Positions 1,970 through 28,568 of a stretch of DNA of 32,883 nucleotides are shown one piece after another. The stretch comes from an uncultured Clostridia bacterium (GTDB taxonomy: Bacteria; Bacillota; Clostridia; Christensenellales; UBA1242): positions 1 to 32,883 of the forward strand of contig CALWAB010000105.1 of NCBI GenBank assembly GCA_944372745.1, read 5' to 3'. The notes under the pieces were generated by a model that did not search any database, was not told where the DNA came from, and saw only the letters and a list, made by a program, of their open reading frames with translations. How positions within the stretch are numbered: the first letter of the stretch is position 1; every line of letters starts with the position of its first letter. Both the position numbers and the translations under genes were made by a program.

Positions 1970-2677
1970 TCAAAAATTTATTAGTTCGTCGTATAAACGA
2001 TTATAAACACCCCTTAATGATTTGATTTTCTCAGTATCTTTTAATAATGTTCGCCCCACTGCTTTTATTAAAATTTTATTATTTATCTTAATAGCTTCTT
2101 TGAATGCTTTAAGATAAAATTTCAATTCATCTTCTTTATCTTCTTTTATTTTATAATCAGATTCTATAACTCTTTCCATGTCTAGAGCAATATCTTTTAA
2201 ACTTTGATATTCTTCTTCATTATTTACTTCTTCTTCGTCATCAGTTACTAATTCTATATTTTTAGCATTTTCCAAATATAACATAGCATTTCTAAAAGGC
2301 AAAATGAAATAATGCCCGAAATTTGTATAAACATCGTTTATTGTTCCATCATATATAAAATGCTTACTAATAAATGCTTCATAATCAATTTTATTTAAAA
2401 CAATTTGCTGTAAAATTAAGTAACACAGTGCCACTATTTTTTCATTTTCCTTTGGCATTACAAAGTCTTTCGGTGTATTTTCATTGGCAGAAATTGCAAG
2501 CCCCAATTCAGTGGTAAAATCAAAGTTATTAATACATTTTTTTACTATTTCTCTAAATTTTTCATCATTATTAATACTTTCTATCAATTTTACAATATTA
2601 TTCCCCATCATTATGTATTTAGCATCAATGAAGTTATTACATAAAGCAACAAAAGGACGCTGTTCATTTGTTTCCAT
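1970..2677 (-). CDS. hypothetical protein (235 aa) with acidic central segment
   Basis: Long stop-free frame in AT-rich DNA; ends with TGA directly abutting the ylbJ stop; no recognisable domain. Confidence 0.5.
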   Translation of the reverse strand: METNEQRPFVALCNNFIDAKYIMMGNNIVKLIESINNDEKFREIVKKCINNFDFTTELGLAISANENTPKDFVMPKENEKIVALCYLILQQIVLNKIDYEAFISKHFIYDGTINDVYTNFGHYFILPFRNAMLYLENAKNIELVTDDEEEVNNEEEYQSLKDIALDMERVIESDYKIKEDKEDELKFYLKAFKEAIKINNKILIKAVGRTLLKDTEKIKSLRGVYNRLYDELINF

Positions 2678-5927: not shown

Positions 5928-6003
5928 GCTCCCATCGTCTAGTGGCCTAGGACGCTAGCCTCTCACGCTGGTAACACGGGTTCGACCCCCGTTGGGAGTA
6001 CCA
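5928..6003 (+). tRNA. tRNA-Glu (anticodon CUC), encoded CCA
   Basis: Manual cloverleaf: acceptor GCTCCCA/TGGGAGT (G1-U72 wobble), 3-bp D stem GTC/GAC as in tRNA-Glu, anticodon stem CTAGC/GCTGG with loop CT-CTC-AC, T arm ACGGG-TTCGACC-CCCGT, discriminator A plus CCA. Confidence 0.9.
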
Positions 6004-18430: not shown

Positions 18431-18964
18431 TTATGCTGTTACTTCTTTAATTATATCATCTACTATTTTATCTAAAGTTTCAGGCAATGAATCTGCAAAT
18501 TCATAATCAATTCCATACCTATTTAATAATTCCAATATTGTTTCCCCTACTTCATTGGCTTGTTGTTCAGATTGATGCCTACCATTTGTATCATATTCTA
18601 CTACACGCTTTAAATAATAATTTCTATTATTAAATGTATTATTTACTTGTGCAATGAACATATTAAATTCTTCTTTAGCACATTCTAAATTGTTATAGTA
18701 AATGCTAATAAACGCTGGCGCATCTGTAATCACTACATCAACCTTATCCATAAGGCGTGCTATTCGATAAAATTGATTGCCAAAAATGAATACCTGATTC
18801 TCAAAAGCAGTAAAATTTTCTTCATAAAATAGTTCTTTTGCATATTCAGGAGCCATTTCACAATTAATTCCTCTCATTTTTAAAGAAGCAAAAATATAAG
18901 CCATAGCAGTAGACTTTCCCGAACCCGGTGCACCAAATAAATTAACAACAATATTTTTTTTCAT
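18431..18964 (-). CDS. small P-loop NTPase/kinase-like protein (AAA_28/dNK-like), function unknown
   Basis: Walker A 'GAPGSGKST', Walker B-like 'VDVVITDAP'; 177 aa. Confidence 0.6.
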   Translation of the reverse strand: MKKNIVVNLFGAPGSGKSTAMAYIFASLKMRGINCEMAPEYAKELFYEENFTAFENQVFIFGNQFYRIARLMDKVDVVITDAPAFISIYYNNLECAKEEFNMFIAQVNNTFNNRNYYLKRVVEYDTNGRHQSEQQANEVGETILELLNRYGIDYEFADSLPETLDKIVDDIIKEVTA

Positions 18965-19213: not shown

Positions 19214-19241
19214 AAAGGGTCTTAAGACCCTTTTTATTTTT
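19214..19241. terminator. bidirectional rho-independent terminator
   Basis: AAAGGGTC-ttaa-GACCCTTT followed by TTTATTTTTT; overlaps the stop of the convergent 235-aa gene. Confidence 0.65.
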
Positions 19242-19941
19242 TATCGACCAATTTGCTTAAAACATACTCATCTAAATATTCTTGCAAGAAAGGATATCTA
19301 TTGACCGGATTTTTATCATTATAAGCCAAATCAAATCTCAATAAATATCTATCAAAATCTCCATTAAAACCACTTTCAAATAAATTTAACAATTTTTCTT
19401 TGTCGTTTTCTTTTTCTACAATATGAAGTAAAATCACATCACCGCGTTTTACATGTTCAAGAAAAGCCATCATTGCACTATTGTTGTTTAACCAATCTTT
19501 TTGCTTAAATATAATATCAGTCAAATCTTTTGAAAAAATATCTTTTTTAGCCACTGCTATAATGTTGGCATCAGTATTAATCAGCTGCAAACCAAAGACA
19601 CCTTTTTGTCTTTTTTTGTAAGTAAAAGCAATAGCAAGTATTTCCCATTCAAAGTTGGTTTTTCTCGACATTAATGAAGATACATCGTTTGCAAATTTTT
19701 GAATATCAATAAATCCACCTATCAGTAAATCATCTTGATATTGTATCATTGATGAATTAATATTGCTAATATCTTCATTAATTCTATCATAATACTCTTT
19801 ATATTTTGCTTTTGTTATTTCACTAAAATTTCTTATTTCTTCATATTCTCGTTGTTGTAAATCTTTCTTTTCTTTTAGTTTGGCAAACAAGTCTTTTCGC
19901 TCTTTGGATATAATATCGAAGACTTCCGCATAATCCTTCAT
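19234..19941 (-). CDS. hypothetical protein (235 aa), coiled-coil N-terminus, apparently co-transcribed with hpf
   Basis: GGGGAGG SD; start 18 nt after the hpf stop; K/E-rich heptad-like N-terminal 60 aa; no known motif recognised. Confidence 0.5.
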   Translation of the reverse strand: MKDYAEVFDIISKERKDLFAKLKEKKDLQQREYEEIRNFSEITKAKYKEYYDRINEDISNINSSMIQYQDDLLIGGFIDIQKFANDVSSLMSRKTNFEWEILAIAFTYKKRQKGVFGLQLINTDANIIAVAKKDIFSKDLTDIIFKQKDWLNNNSAMMAFLEHVKRGDVILLHIVEKENDKEKLLNLFESGFNGDFDRYLLRFDLAYNDKNPVNRYPFLQEYLDEYVLSKLVDKK

Positions 19942-23306: not shown

Positions 23307-26300
23307 TTATTCCAAATTGTATTTATAAATTGCAGTAATTCTCAAGCCATTTTTATTTGAAGACAAACTTTTCCCTTTACCCTGCTTTTTATCTGGGAAA
23401 AATTCTTTAATATTTTTCTTTACATAATTGTCAGTGCCGTAAAATCTAACTACATAATCAGCATCATTTTTTTCTATATCCACAAAAATAATTTCATCAT
23501 TATCTAATAAAGCAAAAACCTTTGTGCCTTTTCTAGCCCTTTGGGACAATTCAATATTGCCAGTATTAAATCGCTTGCCAAAGCCTTTCTTTGTAGCTAA
23601 TACAATTTCAGCACTAAGTGGCATTAAACCGACAAAAACGAACCTATCATCATCTGCCAAATTCATTCCCTTAACACCTTGACTAACACGACCACTTGTA
23701 GGAACATTATTTATTTCACAATTAAGTGCCATTCCCTTTTCTGTGACCATCAATAATGTTTGTTTTGAATCAGCTTTAATTATAGAAAGAACTTCATCAT
23801 CTTCTTTTAGTTTCATAGCAGCAAATTTTTGTTTAGAAATATCATATTCGCTCAATGCCGTACGCTTCAACATACCACATTTTGTAGCGAATATCAATTC
23901 TGTTTTGTCATTTTTATTCATTTCAAAGAATGCCAAAATTTTTTCATCCACATCTAATTCTTTGCAGATAGACCTAAATGGCATTCCTTTATCACGCCAT
24001 TTCACTTCTTTAATATCTTCCACAGCTATTCTACAAGCATTTCCTTTATTTGTAAATGCCATTAAAAATTTATCTGTAGTTGTCTTAACAATATTGTAAT
24101 GCAATTCATTTTCGGTCAACTGTGACGTGTATTCTTTTACGGTCGTTTCATAATGTTTAGGTTGCATTCTCTTGATAGTACCGCTTTGTGTTAATGCTAC
24201 AATAGTGTCTTCCACCACCTTATTGGCTTCCAGTATACTCTCGACATCTATTTCACCAAAACTTTTTACTATCTTAGTCATTCTTGGCATAGAATACTTT
24301 CTTCGAATCTCTAAAAGTTCATTTTTGATAACATCAAGTTGCAAACGCTTAGAATTAAGTATTGCGGTTAATTTCTCTATTAATATTTTTAATTCGGCTA
24401 TTTCTTGTTCAATTTTGTACACTTCTAGACTTGTTAAGCGTGCCAATCTCATATCCAAAATAGCTTGTGCCTGCTTTTCTGATAACAAAAATCTTTGTTT
24501 TAAACGAATTTTAGCTTCTGTAGTATTAGGGCTATTCTTTATTATTGCTACTACTTCATCAATGTTAACAATGGCTATGTGCAAGCCTTCTAATATGTGC
24601 ATTCTTTCTTTTGCATTGTTTAAATCAAAACGAGTTCTGCGAACAATAATATCAATTTGATAATTAAGATAATACTTCAATATAGACATTAATCCAAGTT
24701 GTTTAGGTTTTCCATCAGCAATAGCAACCATATTAATGCCATAACTTGATTGTAAATCACTGTATTTGTAAAGCAAATTAAGAATATCATTAGGATTATA
24801 CCCTACCTTCACTGTGATAACAGCACGGATTCCATTTCTATCTGACTCATCTTTGATATCTTGGATACCCAATAGTACGCCTTTTTTGTCTTCTCTAATA
24901 TCAACAATTTTAGCAAGCAAACTGGCTTTATTTTTTTGAAAAGGAATTTCAGTTATGACTATATTTGTTTTACCATTTCCAGCGTCTTCTAAATGAGTCT
25001 TAGCTCTCATTGTAATCTTGCCACGCCCTGTTTCATAAGCTTGATAAAGTTCGTCAGTAGATATGATTGCGCCAGTTGGAAAATCTGGCCCTTTTATGAT
25101 TTTCATCATATCTTTTAACTGAATAGTTGGATGGTCAATAAGTGCTATGACACCATCAATAACTTCATTAAGATTGTGTGGTGGTATATTGGTCGCTAAG
25201 CCAACTGCTATACCCAAAGCTCCATTAACTAAAAGATTTGGAAAGCGCCCCGGCAATGTATCTGGTTCTTTTAATGTGTCATCAAAATTAAAACTCCATT
25301 TAACAGTGTCTTTCTCTAAATCTCTTAATAATTCCATAGCAAGTGGTGCAAGTTTCGCCTCTGTATATCTCATTGCAGCAGCACTATCACCATCAATAGA
25401 GCCAAAGTTACCATGCCCTTGAACAAGTATACCACGCATATTAAATGGTTGTGCCATACGCACCAATGCATCGTATACAGATGTATCACCGTGTGGATGA
25501 TATTTACCTAAACAATCACCTACAATTCTGGCACATTTTCTATATGCTTTGTCTGGAGTCATCCCTAATTCAAGCATAGTATATAGAATTCTTCTTTGTA
25601 CAGGCTTAAGTCCATCTTCTACTCTAGGCAAAGCACGGTCAAGCAATACAAACTCACTATAAGGTATCATTGAATTATGTAAAACTTCATCAATGGATTG
25701 CACAAGCAAACCACCATCTAGTTTACCACCATTCCCACCTTTGTTTTTTACTTTAGGCTCATCATTATTAGCCATTTCTCTTACCCCTTTTTGATGTTTC
25801 TTAGGTTTTGAATATTCAATGCTTGTTACATTATTTTCGTAAACTGTGTTATTTTGTTCATCTAAAAATTGTCCGTCAATTTCTTCTTTTTCTATTTCAT
25901 TATAATTATCTAATTTATTTTCTGCTTCATCATTTTCTTGTTCGCCATTATAAAATTCGGCTTCATCATTATCAAATTCAGATTCTTCAAAATGATTGTC
26001 ATCTATATCTTTATCATCTTGTAAATCGCTTTCATTGTAATTGCCATTCACACTAATATTTTGCAAAGTTTCATTGTTTTCTAAGTTTACAATATCGTCT
26101 TCTAAAATGTCATTTTGTTTTTCACTAAATTTATTTTGATAATTATCTTCTTCATTATCTTGCTCTACATCATTTTCTACTTCATTGAAGTTATATTGGT
26201 CTTCATTGTCTTGTTGATAATCATCATAATGATTTATTTCTTCTATATCTAATTTATCATCATCGGCATCAAAATTATCATTGTTTGTATCATTGTCTGT

Positions 26301-26531
26301 TTTATTAAAATTATCGCTTGTTGCATTTAAAACATCATCACTTGTTTTTTGTGACTTAATTCTATCATAATAACTAAACAAATCTAATTGCCCTTCTACA
26401 GGTTGATTTGTAAAAACTTCTTCTTCCTCTGGCGGAGAGTTCAAAGGCAATTCAAAAATAGACATCTGCCCTTCTACAGGCTCATTTGTAAATTCCTCGT
26501 CCTCTGGCCCTTGATTATCTTCAAATGACAC
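23307..26531 (-). CDS. parC: DNA topoisomerase IV subunit A (ParC-type) with ~250-aa acidic N-terminal extension
   Basis: Core 'DRALPRVEDGLKPVQRRILY', 'HPHGD', catalytic 'AAMRYTEAKL'; no GyrA-box (QRRGGKG) in the C-terminal domain; parE immediately upstream; not in a dnaA-gyrB context; GTG 26531 has an AGGAG SD; the alternative ATG at 25775 would give a canonical 822 aa. Confidence 0.8.
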   Translation of the reverse strand: MSFEDNQGPEDEEFTNEPVEGQMSIFELPLNSPPEEEEVFTNQPVEGQLDLFSYYDRIKSQKTSDDVLNATSDNFNKTDNDTNNDNFDADDDKLDIEEINHYDDYQQDNEDQYNFNEVENDVEQDNEEDNYQNKFSEKQNDILEDDIVNLENNETLQNISVNGNYNESDLQDDKDIDDNHFEESEFDNDEAEFYNGEQENDEAENKLDNYNEIEKEEIDGQFLDEQNNTVYENNVTSIEYSKPKKHQKGVREMANNDEPKVKNKGGNGGKLDGGLLVQSIDEVLHNSMIPYSEFVLLDRALPRVEDGLKPVQRRILYTMLELGMTPDKAYRKCARIVGDCLGKYHPHGDTSVYDALVRMAQPFNMRGILVQGHGNFGSIDGDSAAAMRYTEAKLAPLAMELLRDLEKDTVKWSFNFDDTLKEPDTLPGRFPNLLVNGALGIAVGLATNIPPHNLNEVIDGVIALIDHPTIQLKDMMKIIKGPDFPTGAIISTDELYQAYETGRGKITMRAKTHLEDAGNGKTNIVITEIPFQKNKASLLAKIVDIREDKKGVLLGIQDIKDESDRNGIRAVITVKVGYNPNDILNLLYKYSDLQSSYGINMVAIADGKPKQLGLMSILKYYLNYQIDIIVRRTRFDLNNAKERMHILEGLHIAIVNIDEVVAIIKNSPNTTEAKIRLKQRFLLSEKQAQAILDMRLARLTSLEVYKIEQEIAELKILIEKLTAILNSKRLQLDVIKNELLEIRRKYSMPRMTKIVKSFGEIDVESILEANKVVEDTIVALTQSGTIKRMQPKHYETTVKEYTSQLTENELHYNIVKTTTDKFLMAFTNKGNACRIAVEDIKEVKWRDKGMPFRSICKELDVDEKILAFFEMNKNDKTELIFATKCGMLKRTALSEYDISKQKFAAMKLKEDDEVLSIIKADSKQTLLMVTEKGMALNCEINNVPTSGRVSQGVKGMNLADDDRFVFVGLMPLSAEIVLATKKGFGKRFNTGNIELSQRARKGTKVFALLDNDEIIFVDIEKNDADYVVRFYGTDNYVKKNIKEFFPDKKQGKGKSLSSNKNGLRITAIYKYNLE
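26370..26507 (-). repeat. tandem coding duplication at the 5' end of parC (two ~60-bp units)
   Basis: Units 26448-26507 and 26370-26432 encode PEDEEFTNEPVEGQMSIFEL and PEEEEVFTNQPVEGQLDLFSY; the DNA shares 'cccttctacagg..catttgtaaa..tc.tc.tcctctgg'. Confidence 0.7.
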
Positions 26532-26600
26532 AAATAACTCCTATTATTTTTGCAACAATAATGATAATTTTATATAATGATAACAATGTCAAGACAAATA

Positions 26601-28568
26601 TTATTTAACTTTCTTTAATTTATCAAATTCGTCTGGTTCTTTATTGAAATTAGCATATTCAGAAATATAAATTTTTCTTGATTCAATATCGTCACCCATC
26701 AAAGTAGTAATCAATTTTTCTGCTTCCGCTGCATCATCAATAGTTACTCTTATCATAGTACGATTTTTAGGGTCCATAGTGGTTTCCCAAAGTTGTTCGG
26801 GGTTCATTTCTCCCAAACCTTTATAACGCTGTATATCATAGCCCTTTCCAAACTCATCAGCATATTCTCGAAGCTGTTCGTCCGAATAAGCATATTTTAC
26901 TTCATTTTTCTTTGAAATTTTATAAAGTGGTGGTACACCTATATAAACATGCCCATCCAAAATAAGTGGTTTCATATATCTATAGAAGAATGTCAATAAT
27001 ATTGCTCTAATATGAGCACCATCTTGGTCGGCATCAGCTAAAATAATGACTTTATCGAATTTCAAATCATCCGTATCAAAATCATCTCCAATGCCTGCTC
27101 CCAAGGCAGTTATGATTGAACGAAACTCATCATTTTGTAAAACCTGTTCCAAACGCTTCTTTTCTACATTCAAAGGCTTTCCTCTAAGTGGTAATATTGC
27201 TTGGAAAGACCTATCTCTACCCATTTTCGCACTTCCGCCTGCACTATCGCCCTCAACAATGTAAAGTTCATTTTTCTTAGCATCTCTACCACTGCAAGAA
27301 GCCAATTTCCCAACCAAGGCTGTTGCTTCCAAACTATTTTTAGCACGCGTAAGTTCTTTTGCTTTCTTGGATGCAATTCTAGCGTGTGCTGCCAATTTAC
27401 CTTTATTAATTATAGCTTCAAGAGTCTTCTTACTATCAGCCTTTTCCATAATAGCCAATAAGTGAGTATAAACAAGGTTTTCAACTTCAGATTTTGCTTC
27501 AGGGTTGCCCAATTTTGTCTTTGTTTGTCCTTCAAATTGAACATTCTTCATCTTTACAGACAAAACTGCCGTAATACCTTCTCTATAGTCTTCCCCCATA
27601 AGATTAGCATCTTTGTCCTTCAAAAAGCCAGCCTCTCGTCCTGCATCATTAAAAACTTTAGTTAACGCAGTCCTGAACCCAGTTTCGTGAGTACCACCCT
27701 CTGAGGTCGATATATTATTTACATAACTAAAGACATTTTCAACATAAGCATCCGTATATTGAATAGCACATTCCAATTTAACTTTATCAGACTTTGCTTC
27801 AAAGTAAATAGGTGGATTAAATAATGTATTCTTTCCTTCATTTAGATAAGTGACAAAATCTTTAATACCACCGTCAAATTTATAAACACGCTTTAAATAA
27901 GAGCCATCTTCATTGACGACATTTTCATCAATTAGTTCAATAGTAGCACCTTTATTTAAAAAAGCATATTCTTTCAAGCGTTTTGCAATAACCTCACCGC
28001 TAAAATTTATTGTTTCAAAAATTCTAGCATCTGGCATAAAGCGAACAAAAGTACCTGTTTCATTTGTAGGTCCTAAACAACGCAAAGGCGACTTAACCGT
28101 TCCGCCTAAAATCTTACCTTTAGAATTAGGCACGGACGCAAATTCAATTTTGTACTTTTTTCCATTTTTATTGGTAATGACTTCAAGCCATTCACTTAAG
28201 GCATTAGTAACGGAAGCACCTACCCCATGCAAACCACCAGAATAATTGTAATTGTCATTATTAAATTTTCCCCCAGCGTGCAACTGAGTAAATACTACTT
28301 CAACACCAGAAATACCTAATTGTGGATGCTTATCGACAGGAATACCACGCCCATTATCTTGAACAGACACACTTCCGTCTTTATAAAGTGTCACTGTAAT
28401 TTTATCACCAAAACCATTTGCGATTTCGTCAATAGAGTTATCAACTATCTCCCACAAAAGATGGTGTAAGCCTTTAGAACTTGTCGTCCCAATATACATA
28501 CCTGGACGCAAACGAACTGCTTCCAACCCTTCAAGAACAACTATATCTTTAGAATTATACTCTTTCAA
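26601..28568 (-). CDS. parE: DNA topoisomerase IV subunit B (ParE-type)
   Basis: GHKL ATPase 'LEGLEAVRLRPGMYIG', 'GGLHGVGASV', Toprim 'EGDSAGGSAK', 'DADQDGAHI'; paired with the parC-type A subunit. Confidence 0.8.
   Translation of the reverse strand: MKEYNSKDIVVLEGLEAVRLRPGMYIGTTSSKGLHHLLWEIVDNSIDEIANGFGDKITVTLYKDGSVSVQDNGRGIPVDKHPQLGISGVEVVFTQLHAGGKFNNDNYNYSGGLHGVGASVTNALSEWLEVITNKNGKKYKIEFASVPNSKGKILGGTVKSPLRCLGPTNETGTFVRFMPDARIFETINFSGEVIAKRLKEYAFLNKGATIELIDENVVNEDGSYLKRVYKFDGGIKDFVTYLNEGKNTLFNPPIYFEAKSDKVKLECAIQYTDAYVENVFSYVNNISTSEGGTHETGFRTALTKVFNDAGREAGFLKDKDANLMGEDYREGITAVLSVKMKNVQFEGQTKTKLGNPEAKSEVENLVYTHLLAIMEKADSKKTLEAIINKGKLAAHARIASKKAKELTRAKNSLEATALVGKLASCSGRDAKKNELYIVEGDSAGGSAKMGRDRSFQAILPLRGKPLNVEKKRLEQVLQNDEFRSIITALGAGIGDDFDTDDLKFDKVIILADADQDGAHIRAILLTFFYRYMKPLILDGHVYIGVPPLYKISKKNEVKYAYSDEQLREYADEFGKGYDIQRYKGLGEMNPEQLWETTMDPKNRTMIRVTIDDAAEAEKLITTLMGDDIESRKIYISEYANFNKEPDEFDKLKKVK

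Follow-up and report, generated by a model that had tools for sequence, protein, structure and literature searches.

A parC gene with a long N-terminal extension

The DNA analysed here, which we call the window, is a stretch of 32,883 nucleotides from an uncultured Clostridia bacterium (GenBank assembly GCA_944372745.1, contig CALWAB010000105.1, positions 1 to 32,883 of the forward strand). Our subject is its parC gene, which encodes the A subunit of a topoisomerase IV (topo IV)-like enzyme preceded by an acidic N-terminal arm of 252 residues, and the two short conserved motifs at the tip of this arm, which may recruit the DnaN sliding clamp or another partner. The features of the locus, given approximately in the direction of transcription, with ORF standing for open reading frame and pLDDT for the predicted local distance difference test score, are the following:

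26601 to 28568, minus strand: parE-like B subunit, 655 residues, directly upstream of parC and in the same orientation
26538 to 26542, minus strand: Shine-Dalgarno sequence AGGAG, read from the sequence, with a 6-nucleotide spacer before the long-form GTG (26531-26529)
23307 to 26531, minus strand: long-form parC ORF, 1074 residues, GTG start, with Pfam DNA_topoisoIV at residues 299-739 and GyrA_C blades
26448 to 26507, minus strand: motif unit 1, PEDEEFTNEPVEGQMSIFEL, residues 9-28, with the core QMSIF (residues 22-26) at 26454-26468
26367 to 26432, minus strand: motif unit 2, PEEEEVFTNQPVEGQLDLFSYY, residues 34-55, with the core QLDLF (residues 48-52) at 26376-26390
25776 to 26366, minus strand: acidic, D/E/N-rich, predicted disordered linker, residues 56-252, about 10% identical to relatives, pLDDT 26-35
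25773 to 25790, minus strand: relic internal start, with a Shine-Dalgarno-like AAAGGGG (GGGG at 25787-25784), an 8-nucleotide spacer and ATG at 25775-25773
23307 to 25775, minus strand: canonical ParC core (short form), 822 residues, whose best PDB matches are GyrA and ParC breakage-reunion domains

The product is a type IIA topoisomerase A subunit by its matches to PF00521 (E=2.7e-157) and PF03989 (E=3.4e-32) in Pfam, and the tyrosine of its catalytic AAMRYTE motif, Y389, is invariant in 58 homologues. Profile and structure comparisons place it between the two paralogous families: the GyrA and ParC cores in the PDB match it about equally (E about 1e-150 to 1e-163), its scores against the parC_Gpos equivalog (737.7, cutoff 813) and the GyrA equivalog (854.9, cutoff 902) are both below the cutoff, and the generic subfamily NF004044 is the sole curated model that it passes. 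A search for the GyrA box, QRRGGKG in the first blade of the C-terminal domain (regular expression [QE][RKT][RK]G[GS][KR]G), found none in the window protein or in 121 relatives; the same expression does detect the box in the more distant true GyrA loci L044, L051 and L064. The upstream ORF matches HATPase_c, DNA_gyraseB, Toprim and DNA_gyraseB_C in Pfam, as well as the GyrB/ParE models of NCBIfam. Because the GyrA box is missing and the gene is paired with a parE-like gene, we infer that the product is a topo IV-like A subunit, ParC rather than GyrA.

The extension is coding and conserved among relatives

The 252-codon extension contains no in-frame stop where 24.6 would be expected from base composition (P~6e-12), none of 20000 shuffles of it is stop-free, and the remaining five frames of the region have 10-58 stops each. 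In the window and in the seven species-level genomes whose loci have complete 5' ends (L001-L005, L007 and L039), the long frame opens 2-18 codons past a stop, and an (A/G)GGAG sequence lies 6-10 nucleotides before its GTG or TTG start. Dozens of independent assemblies contain the arm, as do 9 species-level genomes, and at least one motif copy sits on an N-terminal extension in 71 of the 120 best database homologues, among which the extension is up to about 400 residues long. All genomes with a related parC are uncultured gut Clostridia, Eubacteriales or Christensenella-like metagenome-assembled genomes. The longest tether that we saw belongs to the homologue P0128 (1361 residues), whose arm of about 590 residues has the same two N-terminal motifs. 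As for possible arm-less relatives, P0023 (973 residues) lacks the motifs and is cut by the end of its contig, and P0123 and P0125, on contigs of 549 and 741 bp, are uninformative in this respect.

On these sequence grounds we conclude that the arm is coding, begins at the upstream GTG, is acidic and, by prediction, disordered; its 252 residues include 42 E, 38 N and 37 D, and its net charge is -64. An earlier note on this DNA had proposed the same positions for the ORF, the Shine-Dalgarno sequence, the GTG, the internal ATG and the motifs, and each of these features lies where it had been placed. The same note had judged it very improbable that a 252-codon open frame in such AT-rich DNA is non-coding and had described the part of the arm behind the motifs as D/E/N-rich, and the stop statistics and the composition agree with it on both counts. 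It had also proposed a comparison of orthologues, which recovers the arm in relatives, with an acidic, unconserved linker behind the terminal motifs.

Two motif units at the tip of a variable acidic linker

The tandem duplication that the earlier note had seen in the DNA is a 38-nucleotide repeat at 82% identity (26389-26426 and 26467-26504, spaced 78 nucleotides). At the protein level, the window-type repeat unit comprises 11-12 residues, P-[IV]-[DE]-G-Q-h-[SD]-h-F-x-h (h, hydrophobic), and the family consensus over 88 distinct units is P(-4), [IVL](-3), [DE](-2), G(-1), Q1, [ILMV]2, [GSD]3, [LIF]4, [F or D/E]5, [EDS]6, [LYFI]7. The spacing between the two motifs is 25-29 residues in 42 of 42 two-unit proteins, and 26 in the window protein.

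The units differ between clades, above all at position 5. Throughout the window clade, which extends down to about 63% identity, both units have F5, the cores being QMSIF with QLDLF, QYS[LMI]F, QMDIF or QIDLF. Sister clades, at 46-57% identity, have either one unit or two, with the pattern GQ[ILVM][GS][LIF][DE][DE][LFY], e.g., PIDGQLGLEDLYY and IDGQVGFDDF, and a further sister-clade peptide is PIDGQLGLEDLYYE. Two loci from a separate Eubacteriales lineage, L025 and L031, have a mini-arm of about 35 residues with a single IVDGQTSLFD (sequence IVDGQTSLFDNE), which suggests that a very short tether is enough for the motif to work.

Sequence conservation is concentrated in these units. Across 15 relatives that are 59-76% identical to the window protein overall, identity is 0.55-0.77 at residues 11-50, about 0.1 with many gaps over residues 61-250, and 0.78 in the core; with 0.77, the unit 1 stretch equals the catalytic core. 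Ten of 16 residues of unit 1 are invariant in 8 genomes, and 9 of these 10 use more than one synonymous codon; it is therefore the peptide, not the DNA sequence, that is under selection. Judged by these alignments, purifying selection maintains the motifs and the distance between them, but not the linker. What the linkers share is their charge: homologous linkers range from 16 to 479 residues (median 180), 60 of 61 are net negative, and the median charge is -0.19 per residue, next to a slightly basic core.

The motifs are also rare outside the arm. The strict pattern Q[LM][SD][LI]F does not occur in the other 738 ORFs examined in the window and related loci (244,467 residues); QMSIF and QLDLF count here as one chance event, because both copies represent one duplicated unit. 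When all ORFs of the related loci (1.26 Mb) were scanned for [DE]GQh[GSDNT]h and a terminal Q[LMIV]x[LIM]F, no recognisable clamp partner appeared; the sole match lies in an unrelated repeat context. When a 19-position profile of a single unit was compared with 1.84 billion representative sequences, 10 matches had E<=0.001, and these are ParC arms or arm fragments, plus one junk repeat. Since a lone motif on another protein would fall below significance, this result shows only that the extended motif is ParC-specific.

In the AlphaFold2 monomer of the window protein, pLDDT is below 50 at residues 1-41 and 62-275 and 51-66 at residues 42-61, and the single short helix of the arm (residues 51-61) follows directly after QLD. 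A second model, of the short-arm relative P0108, agrees with this; its helix, at residues 38-51, starts from motif position 4, and across both models the motifs have pLDDT values of 36-66. No segment of the arm is confidently placed on the core in either model, which is a weak test of docking, as both are monomers without ParE or DNA. By alignment and by model, the arm is laid out as a conserved docking peptide on a fast-evolving, predicted disordered tether.

A probable internal start and split variants

The internal ATG at 25775 lies where arm-less ParC proteins begin; it opens an 822-residue product starting MANNDEPKV..., with LPRVEDGLKPVQRR about 50 residues further on. The ATG and a GAGG or GGGG 7-9 nucleotides upstream of it are kept in the window and in L001-L003, and the Met is conserved in most close relatives. 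In all 8 window-clade loci, which are not phylogenetically independent, the long form opens with GTG or TTG and the internal site is ATG, and a weak long-form start codon could set the ratio of the isoforms.

Two independent metagenome contigs, L078 and L079, about 97% identical to L003 in DNA, have the arm and the core as separate genes. They have deletions at the same A-rich junction, of 16 nucleotides in L078 and 28 nucleotides in L079, with different boundaries and each shifting the frame by one. The arm thereby becomes an ORF of its own (219 residues at 2061-2737 of L078, 215 residues at 1926-2590 of L079), which ends 17 nucleotides before the internal ATG, where an 823-residue ParC starts. 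The coverage of L078 is only 2.3x, and these splits could be real strain variants or low-coverage assembly errors; if the assemblies are correct, the internal start works and ParC can do without the arm in cis.

With its own Shine-Dalgarno sequence, ATG 25775 probably yields an arm-less isoform, so that the intact gene would give both a long and a short form. The earlier note had named this ATG as an alternative start for ParC; the start and its 822-residue product are indeed there, and it is probably a second functional start, not a mere alternative annotation.

Within the coding region of the arm, about 170 nucleotides upstream of ATG 25775, there is also a promoter-like TTGATA-17-TATAAT (11 of 12 matches; window 25947-25975, minus strand). 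It could drive a short-form transcript; 14 promoter-like matches were found where 7.4 are expected, and AT-rich DNA yields many.

Genomic setting

The neighbours of the parE-parC pair include infB, nusA, ruvX, truB, the spoIIIA operon, spoIVA and transketolase. The presence of infB, nusA, the spoIIIA operon, spoIVA and transketolase rules out a mobile or phage origin of the locus, and we therefore assign it to the chromosome of a spore-forming Firmicute. A few kilobases downstream of parC lies an AAA_28/KTI12-like ORF of 177 residues (window 18431-18964, minus strand), which is conserved in L001-L003 too. Elsewhere, two ORFs of 235 residues have no Pfam match (window 1970-2677 and 19234-19941, both on the minus strand), and a tRNA-Glu with anticodon CTC (window 5928-6003, plus strand) is the sole Rfam or ARAGORN match in the window.

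Candidate partners of the arm

We interpret the extension as a partner-recruitment arm whose most likely partner is the DnaN sliding clamp, and assign this reading a probability of roughly 0.45. Clamp-binding motifs have been defined as Q-phi-x-[L/M]-[F/L] or Q-phi-x-[L/M]-x-[F/L] (PMC12594201). QLDLF fits the first form exactly and is identical to the clamp motif of Bacillus subtilis Pol Y1, mutation of which abolishes co-localisation with the replisome (PMC11381352), and QMSIF is off the definition only by the I at position 4; measured against the published definition, the exact and the near match to the clamp pentapeptide that the earlier note had recognised both hold. When the units with F or L at position 5 are taken together (the window clade plus L025 and L031), 33 of 33 fit the relaxed clamp pattern and 13 of 33 the strict one, and the units have S, D or G at position 3, residues that known clamp motifs also have there. 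The setting is also consistent with clamp binding: the motifs are terminal and predicted to be disordered (residues 22-26 and 48-52), and their flanks are acidic, whereas positive charge surrounds the hydrophobic cleft of the clamp (PMC12594201). We take the motif peptides EFTNEPVEGQMSIFELP, FTNQPVEGQLDLFSYY and FTNQPVEGQLDLFSYYD, as candidate DnaN ligands.

Several observations weigh against the clamp as partner, most of them from the sister clades. All 55 sister-clade units (Q-h-[GS]-h-[DE]-[DE]-h) fail both published definitions of the clamp motif, because positions 5 and 6 are taken by D/E rather than by a hydrophobic residue, which follows at position 7. What is invariant family-wide is G-Q, h2, h4 and h7, not the L4-F5 pair that is most important for clamp binding, and the conserved P-h-[DE]-G flank together with the hydrophobic residue at +7 points to a longer recognition surface than that of the classical clamp motif. 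Within the window protein itself, QMSIF has I at position 4 and not L or M, and covalent tethering is dispensable in some strains, if the assemblies of L078 and L079 are correct. The sister-clade units show a different likeness, to the eukaryotic PCNA-interacting protein (PIP) box: 55 of 55 fit Q-x-x-h-x-x-h and 35 of 55 the relaxed PIP form Q-x-x-h-x-x-h-h. The canonical PIP box, Qxx[LIM]xx[FY][FY], is matched by QLDLFSYY of the window arm, and by 10 of the 33 units with F or L at position 5. In sequence and in the models, the family-wide grammar and the predicted helix starting from h4 resemble the eukaryotic PIP box more than the bacterial clamp motif. The conservation of Q-x-x-[LI]-F, a point that the earlier note had singled out for comparison, is thus divided, with the pattern kept in the window clade and D/E at position 5 in the sister clades. 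Because the sister-clade units fail the clamp definitions, either DnaN accepts a seven-residue PIP-like variant or the partner differs.

That the motifs dock a partner other than the clamp, e.g., SMC-ScpAB, a SpoIIIE/FtsK translocase, the clamp loader or ParE, we consider somewhat less likely. The likeness of the window clade to QL[SD]LF would then be convergent or coincidental, and the arm would still localise or regulate topo IV. This would account for a consensus, P-h-[DE]-G-Q-h-[GSD]-h-x-[DE]-h, that is longer than the clamp motif, for the 55 of 88 distinct units without the hydrophobic residue at position 5 or 6 that clamp motifs need, and for the amphipathic helix that AlphaFold2 places from h4 in both models, whereas known clamp peptides bind in extended form. 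To our knowledge, however, the clamp motif is the sole bacterial docking motif in which h-x-h follows an invariant Q. Moreover, F5 is present without exception in both window-clade units and reappears in the IVDGQTSLFD of L025 and L031, and the extended motif occurs in no other protein family among the 1.84 billion representatives, so that no family sharing the partner indicates another hub. A precedent for a non-clamp partner is the reported recruitment of Escherichia coli topo IV by the SMC-type MukBEF (PMC5061553).

Distinctly improbable, in our view, is a mainly intramolecular role, in which the arm would be an acidic DNA mimic that inhibits its own enzyme by competing with DNA for the basic C-terminal domain or for the DNA gate, and the motifs would form an intramolecular latch; such a role may coexist with partner binding. 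The net negative charge of 60 of 61 linkers despite the lack of sequence conservation, next to a slightly basic core, speaks for it, as does the point at which the arm leaves the core, the ParC N-terminus, which in the type IIA architecture adjoins the DNA gate and the ParE junction. On the other hand, charge alone leaves the two sharply conserved motifs, their 25-29-residue spacing and the invariant G-Q unexplained, linkers of 16-479 residues are hard to fit with a defined latch geometry, and neither of the two AlphaFold2 monomers, a weak test, has a confidently docked arm. Of the DNA-mimic autoinhibition suggested in the earlier note, the conserved acidity is compatible with the idea, and the two structure predictions lend it no support.

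The notion that the upstream frame is an annotation, assembly or strain-specific artefact and that the real product starts at ATG 25775 is hardly credible: the internal ATG with its Shine-Dalgarno-like element does give a ParC of canonical length, and two contigs have a ParC starting there alone, but the frame is free of the 24.6 stops expected, the arm recurs in dozens of independent assemblies and 9 species-level genomes, its start and Shine-Dalgarno sequence are conserved 2-18 codons past the preceding stop in complete loci, and its motifs are under purifying selection at the protein level. A non-coding or mis-annotated extension is effectively refuted by the open frame, the conserved start and Shine-Dalgarno sequence, and the selection on the motifs.

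A proposed model for clamp-tethered topo IV

With the sliding clamp as partner, the long isoform of the A subunit would carry, from its N-terminus, two motifs, an acidic tether of about 200 residues, and the core. Clamp dimers that stay behind on freshly replicated DNA would receive the motifs in their hydrophobic clefts, so that topo IV would accumulate close behind the fork, at the site of precatenane formation. Being about 20 residues apart, the two motifs could fill both clefts of a single clamp dimer. The tether, being acidic, would hold the arm away from the DNA and extend its range; as long as the arm is not engaged, the tether could also weaken the binding of DNA to the basic C-terminal domain. 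As the internal ATG would give an arm-less form, the cell may hold both tethered and free topo IV. Three elements of this model are inferred, namely that the partner is the clamp, that binding is bivalent and that the cell uses both isoforms.

A bolder version, which we put forward tentatively and at clearly less than even odds, is that this enzyme is the first bacterial type IIA topoisomerase wired to the sliding clamp, that the sister-clade form Q-h-[GS]-h-[DE]-[DE]-h-h represents a new, PIP-box-like class of DnaN-binding motifs, and that the internal start sets the ratio of tethered to free enzyme.

Comparison with known systems

Proteins with a known clamp motif (Pol II, IV and V, B. subtilis Pol Y1, Hda, MutS/MutL and RecB) likewise have Q-h-x-[LM]-F in a disordered terminal region, and in Hda the motif is at the N-terminus, a precedent for the N-terminal position. 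The ParC arm differs from them in that its motif is duplicated with a fixed spacing, is flanked by P-h-[DE]-G and sits on a very long acidic tether, and in that its sister-clade homologues miss the clamp definition. No topoisomerase is included in a review table of bacterial clamp partners, and according to a 2026 paper the list of such partners is incompletely defined, RecB having been added in 2026. In the full-text literature we found neither a clamp motif in a bacterial gyrase or topo IV nor a description of an N-terminal ParC arm, and neither there nor in the lists of bacterial partners did we find a bacterial type IIA topoisomerase subunit described with clamp motifs or as a clamp partner, in keeping with the earlier note, which knew of none.

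Among type IIA enzymes, a close functional parallel concerns MukB, which contacts the folded C-terminal domain of ParC in E. coli; Clostridia have SMC-ScpAB, not MukBEF, and the candidate contact here is a linear motif on an N-terminal disordered arm. Common to both would be a dedicated protein contact that places topo IV where decatenation is needed, as is reported for MukB-ParC (PMC5061553, PMC4738335).

A type IIA A subunit with another acidic, disordered extension is E. coli GyrA, whose C-terminal tail has about 35 residues and no docking motif, whereas the arm described here is N-terminal, motif-tipped and 60-590 residues long. This tail reportedly has a regulatory role and tunes DNA wrapping, a finding credited to Tretter and Berger in 2012. 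The arm, acidic and disordered as well, falls outside the GyrA type of tail, which is appended to the C-terminal domain.

Bacteria have DnaN and not PCNA, which sets the arm apart from PIP-box proteins, and we know of no description of PIP-type binding to DnaN. In eukaryotes, a type IIA topoisomerase, Topo II-alpha, is among the listed partners of PCNA (table in PMC9690074).

Implications

The structural part of the earlier interpretation, a translated, conserved and motif-tipped acidic arm, is supported by our sequence comparisons, and the clamp is a plausible partner, a view that the sister-clade motifs qualify. The recruitment of topo IV to new DNA is understood only in E. coli, where it involves MukBEF, and is open for bacteria with SMC-ScpAB; the arm is of interest because it offers a simple and testable answer to how topo IV could be positioned without MukBEF. 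If the reading is correct, a clamp-tethered ParC would be a direct physical link between the passage of the fork and the removal of precatenanes, and a new enzyme class would join the list of bacterial clamp partners. If the sister-clade motif binds DnaN, the grammar of clamp peptides would widen towards the eukaryotic PIP box. Even with a non-clamp partner, the arm is a clear example from bacteria of a conserved docking motif on the rapidly evolving, disordered and acidic tether of an essential enzyme, with natural split variants at hand.

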